Of a stretch of DNA of 64,000 nucleotides, positions 39,713 through 42,573 are shown piece after piece; position 1 is the first letter of the stretch, and every line of letters starts with the position of its first letter. The notes beneath the pieces are model-generated. The model was not told where the DNA came from and ran no database searches. It worked only from the letters and a program-made list of their open reading frames with translations. Source of the DNA: Polyangiales bacterium (GTDB lineage Bacteria > Myxococcota_A > Polyangia > Polyangiales > Ga0077539); contig JBGARZ010000003.1 of the NCBI GenBank assembly GCA_044229975.1, positions 192,001 to 256,000 of the forward strand, written 5' to 3'. The position numbers and the translations under genes are program-made.

Positions 39713-40237
39713 TCAGGCGTCGAGGGCGACGGCCACGCCGTTGATCACGGCGGCGATGCGGAGCGCATCGAACACGTGGTCTTCGGTGAGGCCGCCTTCG
39801 AGGATGGTGCGGTCGTGCGCCTTCAGGCACACCTCGCAGCCCTTCACGGCGCTGGCGGCGATGCAGAACAGCTCGAAGTCGAGCTTCGTCGAAGCGGGCT
39901 TGGCGATGCGGTTCATCCGCAGGCGGGCAGGCTTCTTCTCGTACGTCTCCTTCCCGAGGAGGTGACGGCCCCGGTAGAAGACGTTGTTCATCGCCATGAT
40001 GGCGGCCGCGGCGCGGGCGTCGTCGATGGTGGCCTCCTCGACCCCGGCCTCGCGGGCGCTCACCAGCACCGCGTCACGGAGCGCGGGGTGCCGCGCGGTG
40101 ATGGCCGCGGTGATGGCCGAGCCCCAGCGCTGCGCGAGGGACAACGTGCCGTCGCCGAGCACGGAGCCGACGTTGAGACGAAGGTCGCGCGCGACGTCAG
40201 GGAGCCGCTCGATGAGGGCTTCGAGGGTTTCGCTCAT
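39713..40237 (-). CDS. ahpD: Alkylhydroperoxidase AhpD
   Basis: AAAIMAMNNVFYR, LRMN and FELFC.AAS...GCEVCL.AH (CxxC). Confidence 0.93.
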   Translation of the reverse strand: MSETLEALIERLPDVARDLRLNVGSVLGDGTLSLAQRWGSAITAAITARHPALRDAVLVSAREAGVEEATIDDARAAAAIMAMNNVFYRGRHLLGKETYEKKPARLRMNRIAKPASTKLDFELFCIAASAVKGCEVCLKAHDRTILEGGLTEDHVFDALRIAAVINGVAVALDA

Positions 40238-40253
40238 GGTGCGCTCTCGACCC

Positions 40254-40784
40254 TCAGAGGGTCTTGTCGCCCTTCTGCCAGTTGCACGGGCAGAGCTCGT
40301 CGGTCTGCAGGGCGTCGAGCGTGCGGAGCACCTCGGGGACGCTGCGGCCCACGCTCAGGTCGTTGACCGAGGCCCAGCGGATGGTGCCCTGCGGGTCGAC
40401 GATGAAGGTCGCGCGGAGGCACACGCCGTCCTCCTTGTGGAGGATGCCGAGGCCCTTGGAGAGTTCCTGCTTCGCGTCGGCGAGCATCGGGAAGGGGAGG
40501 TTGCGGAGGTCGTCGTGGTGGGTGCGCCACGCGTGGTGGACGAAGTGCGAGTCGGTGCTCAGGCCGAGCACCTGCGCGTCGCGGTCGTTGAAGTCCCTGT
40601 TGCGCTTGCCGAACTCCGCGATCTCCGTCGGGCAGATGAACGTGAAGTCCATCGGCCACGCGAAGAGCACCAGCCACTTGCCCTCGTAGGACTTGTCCGT
40701 GATGCGGGCGAACTCCTTGCCCTTCTCAAGCGAGACACAAGCCTGGAGGTTGAACGCGGGAATCTGGTCGCCAATGGTCAGCAT
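40254..40784 (-). CDS. ahpC: Peroxiredoxin AhpC (actinobacterial-type, AhpD-coupled)
   Basis: PMDFTFICPTE peroxidatic Cys; TDELCPCNW resolving Cys; SD AGGAG. Confidence 0.93.
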   Translation of the reverse strand: MLTIGDQIPAFNLQACVSLEKGKEFARITDKSYEGKWLVLFAWPMDFTFICPTEIAEFGKRNRDFNDRDAQVLGLSTDSHFVHHAWRTHHDDLRNLPFPMLADAKQELSKGLGILHKEDGVCLRATFIVDPQGTIRWASVNDLSVGRSVPEVLRTLDALQTDELCPCNWQKGDKTL

Positions 40785-40844
40785 CGTGGGATCTCCTGTC
40801 GGTGACGCCGGCGCCTCTGCCGGGTCTTTGGTGACGGGCCTTGT

Positions 40845-40860
40845 ATCGAGAATCGGGCCA
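40845..40860 (-). promoter_or_regulatory. Putative sigma54 (-24/-12) promoter of ahpCD
   Basis: Minus strand TGGCCCG-ATTC-TCGAT versus consensus TGGCACG-N4-TTGCW; the -12 element is imperfect. Confidence 0.5.
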
Positions 40861-40918
40861 CACAGCATCACCCCTTCTCTTCCCCATGAATTCGCCTCGA
40901 TCGTGGCCTCTCACCGCC

Positions 40919-40973
40919 CACCGATATATCGGTGACAACGACATTTCGGTGACTCGCCACTGGCATTCCGGTG
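40919..40973. promoter_or_regulatory. Three palindromic enhancer-like boxes, consensus CACCGA-N4-TCGGTG
   Basis: caccgatatatcggtg (40919-34, perfect), caacgacatttcggtg (40936-51) and cactggcattccggtg (40958-73). Confidence 0.65.
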
Positions 40974-40998
40974 GAGCCCATCGCATGGATGAGCGCCC

Positions 40999-42573
40999 AT
41001 GGAACGCTCCCTCCCCGCCCTCGACCTGACCCACGACCTGCGCGCGCTGGCGACGCTGGCGACCGACGACGACGGCCTCGACGACCTCGTGCGGCGCGGC
41101 CTCGACTGGCTCGCGCGGCTGGCACCCTATGACCTCGCGACGGTGTTCTCTCTCGACGGGTCGAGGCTGGTGATTCGCGCGGCGCGAGGGCGGCTGGCCG
41201 ACGAGCGGGTGCGTCGCCACGAGGTGTCGCTCGACGACTTCCCGACGATTCGCGAGGCGCTGGAGACGCGGCGCGCTCGGGCCTACACCGAGGACGACCA
41301 CGCGCATGGGGACGGCGATCCCTTCGACGGGGTGCTCGACCTGCCGGCGGGGCACGCGTGCATGGTGGTTCCGCTGTGCGCGGGCGAGCGGTGCTTCGGC
41401 GTGCTGACGCTCGACCGCGAGCGCTGCGAGGTGTTTCCCGCGCAGGTGGTCGACCTCGTGGAGGTCTACGCGCAGATGCTCGCGCTCGCGCTGGTCAACG
41501 CCGAGCAGCGGGCGCTCATCGCGCGGCTGCACCATCAGGAGCTCGATCACGCGCGCATCCTCGAAGCGGAGATCGCAGGCGAGCACGAGGGCGTGCTGGA
41601 GTCGTCGCACTCGCCGCGGGTGCTGGAGCTGTCGCAGCGCGCGCGGCAGGTGGCGCGCACGGAGACACCCGTCCTGGTGCTGGGTGAGACGGGCACCGGG
41701 AAGGAGCGGCTGGCGCGGGCCATCCACGGGTGGAGCGCGCGGGCGACGCGGCCCTTCGTGAAGATCAACTGCGCGGCGATCCCAGCGGGGCTGATGGAGA
41801 GCGAGCTCTTCGGGCATGTGCGCGGGAGCTTCACGGGCGCGACGCGCGACCGACCGGGGAGGTTTCAGACGGCCAACGGGGGGACGCTCCTGCTCGACGA
41901 GATCGGGGAGCTCTCGCTCGACCTGCAAGCGAAGCTGCTGCGGGTTCTGCAAGAGGGGACCTTCGAGCCGGTGGGCAGCGATCGCACGGTGCGGGTGGAC
42001 GTTCGCATCGTCGCGGCGACGCACGTCGACCTGGAGCAGGCCGTCGCGGCGCGGCGGTTTCGCGCCGACCTCTACTACCGGCTCAACGTGTTTCCGCTGC
42101 GGCTGCCGCCGCTGCGCGATCGCATGGAGGACCTCGGGGCGCTCAGCGAAGCGCTCCTGTCCGAGCAGGCGACGCGCACCGGACGACGTGGGCGGGCGCT
42201 CACCGCGGCGGCGCTCGCGAAGCTCCGGCGGTACGCGTGGCCGGGCAACATCCGCGAGCTCGCCAACGTGCTGGAGCGCGCGACCATCCTCGGCGACGGC
42301 GCGGTGCTCGACGCGGCCACCATCGACCTGCCGACGGCGCGCGCGGCGCTACCAGCAGTGGTGCATGTGAGCGTCGCGGACGAACTCCAGACCTTGGAGG
42401 ACGTGGAGCGATCGCACATCCGTCGGGTGCTGATGGAGACCCGCGGGCGGGTCTATGGACGGGGCGGGGCGGCGGCCATCCTGGGGCTCAAGCCGTCGAC
42501 GTTGCAGAGCCGGATGAAGAAGCTCGGGCTCGCGCGACTCGAAGGCGCCGCGACGCTGCGCGACGATCTTTGA
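40999..42573 (+). CDS. Sigma54-dependent enhancer-binding protein with a NorR-like GAF domain
   Basis: GAF DPFDG, HACM and LTLD; AAA+ GETGTGKE, ESELFGH.RGSFTGA, LDEIGE and WPGNIRELAN; C-terminal HTH. Confidence 0.92.
   Translation: MERSLPALDLTHDLRALATLATDDDGLDDLVRRGLDWLARLAPYDLATVFSLDGSRLVIRAARGRLADERVRRHEVSLDDFPTIREALETRRARAYTEDDHAHGDGDPFDGVLDLPAGHACMVVPLCAGERCFGVLTLDRERCEVFPAQVVDLVEVYAQMLALALVNAEQRALIARLHHQELDHARILEAEIAGEHEGVLESSHSPRVLELSQRARQVARTETPVLVLGETGTGKERLARAIHGWSARATRPFVKINCAAIPAGLMESELFGHVRGSFTGATRDRPGRFQTANGGTLLLDEIGELSLDLQAKLLRVLQEGTFEPVGSDRTVRVDVRIVAATHVDLEQAVAARRFRADLYYRLNVFPLRLPPLRDRMEDLGALSEALLSEQATRTGRRGRALTAAALAKLRRYAWPGNIRELANVLERATILGDGAVLDAATIDLPTARAALPAVVHVSVADELQTLEDVERSHIRRVLMETRGRVYGRGGAAAILGLKPSTLQSRMKKLGLARLEGAATLRDDL

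Follow-up and report, generated by a model that had tools for sequence, protein, structure and literature searches.

A divergent pexR-ahpC-ahpD locus in a Polyangiales bacterium, very probably a counterpart of the peroxide-sensing PexR system of Myxococcus xanthus

Which signal is sensed by a sigma54-dependent activator whose gene lies head-to-head with ahpC and ahpD, and is such a circuit new? We addressed this question for a locus at positions 39713 to 42573 of a 64,000-nucleotide window, the whole stretch analyzed here, from the genome of a Polyangiales bacterium (assembly GCA_044229975.1, contig JBGARZ010000003.1, positions 192,001 to 256,000). The original prediction, made from the nucleotide sequence, was that of a NorR-like, iron-binding activator of ahpC-ahpD forming an undescribed oxidative or nitrosative stress circuit. 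Our analyses indicate that the locus is very likely a pexR-ahpC-ahpD unit, orthologous to the PexR peroxide-sensing system of Myxococcus xanthus and likely working in the same manner. The circuit can no longer be called undescribed, as it was published under the name PexR (NAR 2025, PMC12754779).

All three genes of the locus are intact and arranged as had been predicted. The activator gene and ahpC are separated by a spacer of 214 bp, and the ahpC stop codon precedes the ahpD start by 16 bp. AhpC harbors Cys51 plus a C-terminal C165-x-C167 pair, and its gene is preceded by an AGGAG ribosome site; AhpD is the AhpC reductase. The activator carries the motifs initially quoted for it, namely, DPFDG, HACM, LTLD, FPTI, and GSFTGA, as well as the quoted helix-turn-helix (HTH) segment.

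PexR of M. xanthus (MXAN_1565; 1596 bp, 58.2 kDa) is encoded divergently from ahpC (MXAN_1564) and ahpD (MXAN_1563); its publication late in 2025 added a third paradigm of bacterial peroxide sensing to those of OxyR and PerR (PMC12754779). It recognizes CACCG-n6-CGGTG repeats and, under hydrogen peroxide (H2O2), activates the sigma54 promoters of ahpC and katB; tert-butyl hydroperoxide likewise induces the system. Its GAF domain binds Zn2+ or Fe2+, and the metal is lost upon treatment with H2O2. The substitutions H102A, H120A, C122A, and D140A cause loss of the metal and constitutive activity (PMC12754779). A 2026 preprint treats the PexR sites as established.

A search with the GAF region of the activator scored 7995 candidates, of which 508 proteins reached E <= 1e-5, the closest named matches being from Sandaracinaceae/Polyangiales (~71%). 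Through the Myxococcus matches we found a PexR reference (P0191), labeled M. xanthus DK 1622. With 531 residues, a mass of 58,233 Da, and H102, D108, D111, H120, C122, D140, and C144, it agrees with the published PexR values; its identity is based on label, length, mass, and residues, and the four accessions shown did not include the WP accession of the paper. The activator aligned with this protein over its full length with 343/522 identical residues (65.7%), including 102/151 in GAF (67.5%), 174/241 in AAA+, and 39/53 in HTH. It thereby falls within the published range of PexR homologues for overall identity (47-98%), GAF identity (51-98%), and coverage (at least 90%) (PMC12754779). In a tblastn search of the genome with M. 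xanthus PexR, the activator was the best of 63 matches, at 667 bits versus 291 for the next one, and the PexR GAF domain alone had a single match, again the activator. By comparison, identity to Escherichia coli NorR, fetched from MG1655, was 189/488 (38.7%) overall, with 40/146 in GAF (27%), 123/239 in AAA+, and 12/49 in HTH (24.5%). The activator ranked third when NorR served as the tblastn query, and the NorR GAF domain alone had no match in this genome at E <= 1e-3.

The residues H101, H119, C121, and D139 of the activator align residue for residue with the four PexR metal ligands, and all seven numbered PexR residues, including D108, D111, and C144, are retained with an offset of -1. Among the 120 best homologues listed, H101, D107, H119, C121, D139, and C143 are invariant, and D110 is present in 117. 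The mapping of the GAF domain onto NorR in the original prediction, including loss of the Arg segment, was borne out by the alignment with MG1655 NorR: D107, D110, H119, C121, and D139 correspond to D96, D99, H111, C113, and D131, respectively, and T83 occupies the position of R75. Across the same 120 homologues, this position is occupied by T in 85 and by S in 35, and H101 sits in an insertion not present in NorR. In NorR, D96 and D131 are counted as iron ligands. An earlier study proposes R75 as a ligand displaced by nitric oxide (NO) and also names D99 and C113 (PMC2941729). The weight initially given to the NorR-like Asp residues was misplaced: in PexR, their equivalents D108 and D111, like C144, had little effect when replaced by Ala, the tested ligands being His, His, Cys, and Asp (PMC12754779). 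By analogy, the metal held by the GAF domain of the activator may be Zn2+ or Fe2+.

Analysis of the spacer revealed three PexR-type upstream activating sequences (UAS) followed, toward ahpC, by a putative sigma54 promoter whose distance is 58 bp to UAS 3 and 59 bp to the start codon (ATG) of ahpC (Table 1). The mismatched half-site of UAS 1, CAGTG, recurs at the best-matching locus of all 11 relatives considered below. In a scan of the 10-Mb genome with a matrix built from 30 sites at the loci of 10 relatives, with the locus itself and that of one relative (L090) excluded, the three sites ranked 1 to 3 among 362 sites of at least 9 bits. The genome also contains rpoN, with a score above its cut-off. 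A terminator scan gave one weak hairpin, at chance level. The three UAS, the sigma54 promoter, and the repressor role had been overlooked in the original prediction.

Table 1. Coordinates of the genes, domains, and predicted regulatory sites (window positions unless given as residues)
Feature	Position	Strand	Description
ahpD	40237-39713	-	174 residues; Pfam CMD; TIGR00778 above cut-off; TIGR00777 175 bits (cut-off 192); CxxC C134/C137
ahpC	40784-40254	-	176 residues; Pfam AhpC-TSA 4.5e-37; TIGR03137 152 bits (cut-off 272, not reached)
Predicted pexR orthologue (activator)	40999-42573	+	524 residues; GAF-AAA+-HTH sigma54 enhancer-binding protein
Activator domains (Pfam)	residues: GAF 27-165; Sigma54_activat 204-367; AAA lid; HTH_8 465-509		
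GAF sensor domain	41077-41493	+	residues 27-165; predicted metal ligands H101, H119, C121, D139
PexR-type UAS 1 (most distant from ahpC)	40958-40973		1 mismatch to CACCG-n6-CGGTG
PexR-type UAS 2	40936-40951		1 mismatch to CACCG-n6-CGGTG
PexR-type UAS 3	40919-40934		perfect 16-bp palindrome; top matrix score of the genome, 27.0 bits
Predicted sigma54 (-24/-12) ahpC promoter	40860-40844	-	GG at 40859-40858; 8/11 consensus positions

We then determined how far this organization is conserved. A GAF search of 31 genomes, the own genome plus 30 relatives, gave matches in 18 at E <= 1e-3 and in 12 at E <= 5.2e-72. In all 12 loci of the latter set, from the own genome and 11 relatives, ahpC and ahpD are divergent from the activator gene, which shows that the arrangement is not due to chance; the repeats also number three at each of them (they are looser in L090), and a sigma54-type site lies downstream. 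Two weaker, paralogous loci (L093 and L099) have no ahpC within 1.5 kb. In a sample of 120 other genomes of the phylum, 13 matched at E <= 1e-25. The His/His/Cys/Asp set is retained in 12 of these 13 homologues, the remaining one showing an alignment gap at H101; ahpC was found within 1.5 kb in 3/13 cases and ahpD in 2/13. Products encoded divergently in this sample include ferritin/Dps-like, rubrerythrin, FKBP-type, and multiheme cytochrome proteins, plus two peroxiredoxin-glutaredoxin hybrids; for several loci, a clear divergent gene could not be made out. Thus, the ahpCD synteny, proposed at the outset as a check, holds closely around this lineage and loosens among distant homologues. In the published survey, pexR was found in 60/78 Myxococcota genomes, mostly adjoining ahpCD (PMC12754779). 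A search of genome contigs for related loci was discarded, as the shared AAA+ motif brought in mainly unrelated activators among the 80 loci.

Sequence identity, the best match in this genome, the ligands, the UAS, and the synteny together identify the activator, at the sequence level, as an orthologue of M. xanthus PexR. The two proteins are 66% identical and share their domain order, the four tested ligands, and also D108, D111, and C144; the locus likewise has divergent ahpC-ahpD genes and a sigma54-type promoter preceded by three CACCG-n6-CGGTG-type UAS. Here the spacer spans 214 bp with three repeats, versus 488 bp with six repeats in M. xanthus; at less than 300 bp, it resembles those of most myxobacteria (PMC12754779). 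The sigma54-contact loop reads GSFTGA rather than the GAFTGA of M. xanthus PexR, and the -12 element contains GA. OxyR and PerR share with this system the output, peroxide-induced ahpC, but have unrelated folds (LysR and Fur, respectively) and act at sigma70/sigmaA promoters. The C-terminal HTH is identical to that of E. coli FhlA at 27/49 positions (55%), confirming that it is FhlA-like rather than NorR-like. In contrast, the activator has a single GAF domain, 25% identical to the second GAF domain of FhlA, which lacks the ligand set, and its FhlA NCBIfam score is 353 bits for a cut-off of 830.

The gene identities, the orthology, the conserved ligands, the three UAS, the sigma54-type site at its conserved distance, and rpoN are all observed in this genome, and on this basis the regulation likely follows the steps established by experiments in M. 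xanthus. At rest, PexR dimers would occupy the three palindromic sites and hold Zn2+ or Fe2+ via H101, H119, C121, and D139, and the metal-loaded GAF domain would inhibit the AAA+ domain. H2O2 or organic peroxide would strip the metal from GAF, and the metal-free PexR oligomer would then remodel sigma54-RNA polymerase, leading to ahpCD transcription. AhpC would reduce peroxides and be re-reduced by AhpD. It is also plausible, though with weaker grounds, that resting PexR dampens a sigmaA promoter of ahpC overlapping the UAS; such a promoter was not located here.

Could the protein instead be a NorR-type NO sensor redeployed to drive ahpCD against NO or peroxynitrite? NorR, the non-heme-iron activator of norVW in E. 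coli, belongs like this activator to the Group III proteins with GAF-AAA+-HTH organization, its D96, D99, H111, C113, and D131 pair with conserved activator residues, and GAF autoinhibition and three UAS are common to both systems (PMC12754779). NorR is also the top NCBIfam match of the activator (NF003451, 383.6 bits), but this score is under the cut-off of 476. The two proteins differ in the GAF domain, with Thr in place of R75 and the extra His ligand in the insertion, and in HTH, DNA sites, target genes, and signal, the repeats here being of the PexR type. The genes around the activator, ahpC, ahpD, an HtrA-like protease gene, and a vWA/CglB-like gene, do not include norVW, norB, or hmp, and no NO reductase was identified among the divergent genes of the 13 phylum-sample loci, which include peroxide defense functions (ahpC, ferritin/Dps-like, rubrerythrin, and peroxiredoxin-glutaredoxin). 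The PexR authors state its kinship to NorR and raise NO sensing only as a possibility, whereas the signal demonstrated for the M. xanthus orthologue in vivo is H2O2 (PMC12754779). We therefore consider an NO-dedicated circuit very improbable, and the nitrosative leaning of the original prediction was not upheld. Its broader proposal of a metal-GAF sigma54 activator controlling ahpCD with a ligand set unlike that of NorR agrees with what the sequence suggests, a PexR orthologue.

Several observations weigh against a PexR-type mechanism in this genome. The relatives behind the UAS matrix are close kin and not independent of one another. The perfect palindrome by itself is common, with 194 copies in this genome of 71% GC, and it is therefore the three sites together that carry information; a loosely defined triplet pattern matches one further place, C34:119665, with codon-multiple spacing. 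The -12 element reads TCGA instead of TTGC, and with the GSFTGA loop in place of GAFTGA, sigma54 activation could be weaker. An A at -12 is tolerated in some natural sigma54 promoters, a point that a literature search did not confirm. Finally, a consensus scan for sigma70-type promoters gave 0 sites, leaving the repressor arm unconfirmed.

Alternatively, the sigma54 arm could have decayed in this genus, leaving PexR to function chiefly as a repressor that peroxide releases from a housekeeping promoter of ahpC. Repression of the sigmaA ahpC promoter by resting PexR is documented in M. xanthus (PMC12754779), and the deviations are shared by the genus: GA at -12, at the same promoter position, in 7/7 loci, as opposed to the canonical GC in 5/5 loci of other genera, with a loop that reads GSFTGA in four, GGFTGA in three, and GAFTGA in none. 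Nevertheless, the TGGCCCG -24 box and the gap of 54-58 bp to UAS 3 are retained in all seven genus loci despite diverged flanking DNA, which points to selection for sigma54 binding. The loop variants keep F and T, and they also co-occur with canonical GC promoters (L088 and L091). GSFTGA is found in 5/39 motif-matched activators of this genome, the PexR orthologue included, and in 14 of 178 homologous proteins, 140 of which have GAFTGA. Moreover, a GAF-less, constitutively active M. xanthus PexR retains DNA binding (PMC12754779), and loss of the metal is therefore not expected to release a repressor. Decay of the sigma54 arm thus appears extremely unlikely, and sigma54-dependent activation by PexR is the reading that we retain.

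Which genes might PexR control besides ahpCD? We considered katG, four CCP/MauG-domain genes, a rubrerythrin-like gene, and a second peroxiredoxin gene, and rejected them as direct targets: of these seven genes, four had a single one-mismatch site in the 1 kb preceding the match start, three had none, and no UAS pair was found. No heme monofunctional catalase (PF00199) and no katB/katE-type gene were detected in this genome, which is 93% complete; three of four congeners tested also lack one and the fourth has one. A search for Mn catalase was negative. A katG gene is present at C2:246801 (57.6% to E. coli). KatE has been reported to be essential in M. xanthus. M. xanthus has a dps gene 3' of ahpD, which is absent here. 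With no katB-type catalase and no second UAS cluster, the direct PexR regulon in this genome is probably ahpCD alone, which fits the proposal that pexR-ahpCD is ancestral and that katB was added later, in Cystobacterineae (PMC12754779). Regarding other peroxide regulators, OxyR with C199/C208 was not found; among the best eight of nine matches listed, the sole one spanning both positions has P and L. Three similar, short Fur-family genes (C11:478305, C29:125663, and C29:147987) are distinct from the main Fur-like gene (C32:476872), and one of those on C29 lies ~0.6 kb from a CCP/MauG-domain gene.

Taken together, GA at -12 with a GS/GGFTGA loop, an ahpCD-only regulon, and KatG in place of KatB/KatE might reflect a lineage-specific retuning of PexR, with a different peroxide threshold or an additional response to NO. 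We regard this as unlikely; if true, the retuned PexR would model the ancestral, pexR-ahpCD-only state (PMC12754779).

Among the relatives, one genome (G014) contains an ordinary pexR-ahpCD locus and additionally a distant PexR paralogue (L107:2723-6671, on contig C53; 52% identity) with all four ligands and a GAFSGA loop. Its gene is divergent from a catalase and ankyrin-protein pair resembling katB-ankB, with three CAACG-n6-CGTTG repeats, not CACCG-n6-CGGTG, and a canonical sigma54 site. These features suggest that PexR was duplicated and that this copy, its DNA specificity having shifted, is dedicated to catalase; such a paralogue does not appear in the accessible text of the PexR paper (PMC12754779). 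In the phylum sample, peroxiredoxin-glutaredoxin hybrid genes (L135:608-1456 and L136:2192-2905) face PexR homologues of ~45% identity with GAFSGA, with CACCG-type repeats at the former, CAACG-type repeats at the latter, and sigma54-type sites at both. The same accessible text makes no mention of this class of target (PMC12754779). Other genes divergent from PexR homologues code for a rubrerythrin (L134:2131-2631, with variant repeats), a ferritin/Dps-like protein (L125:2138-2776, with ahpC at the same locus), a multiheme cytochrome c (L127:2039-3475), and an FKBP-type isomerase (L133:101-1108).

As for the surroundings of the locus, an HtrA/DegP-like trypsin-PDZ gene (43555-42596, minus strand) is convergent with pexR and divergent from a LuxR-type regulator gene (43662-44315), the two spanning 42596-44315. 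On the other side, a gene converging on ahpD (37067-39583) encodes a cysteine-rich repeat protein that contains a vWA domain and matches CglB weakly, and beyond it lie uracil-DNA glycosylase (36369-37049) and HIT (37088-37507) genes.

The circuit is thus a known, experimentally characterized system, to which this locus adds another member and no new circuit. Metal content, reporter assays, promoter mutants, and synteny, the experiments that the prediction had called for, have largely been done in M. xanthus (PMC12754779). The locus matters mostly as confirmation, in that a circuit reconstructed from raw sequence matches the published one, and by itself it raises no new question. It extends PexR to another myxobacterial genus, and, being a naturally occurring variant whose regulon is minimal and whose promoter is altered, it could help test the choice between Fe and Zn, cross-sensing of NO, and the ancestral regulon.

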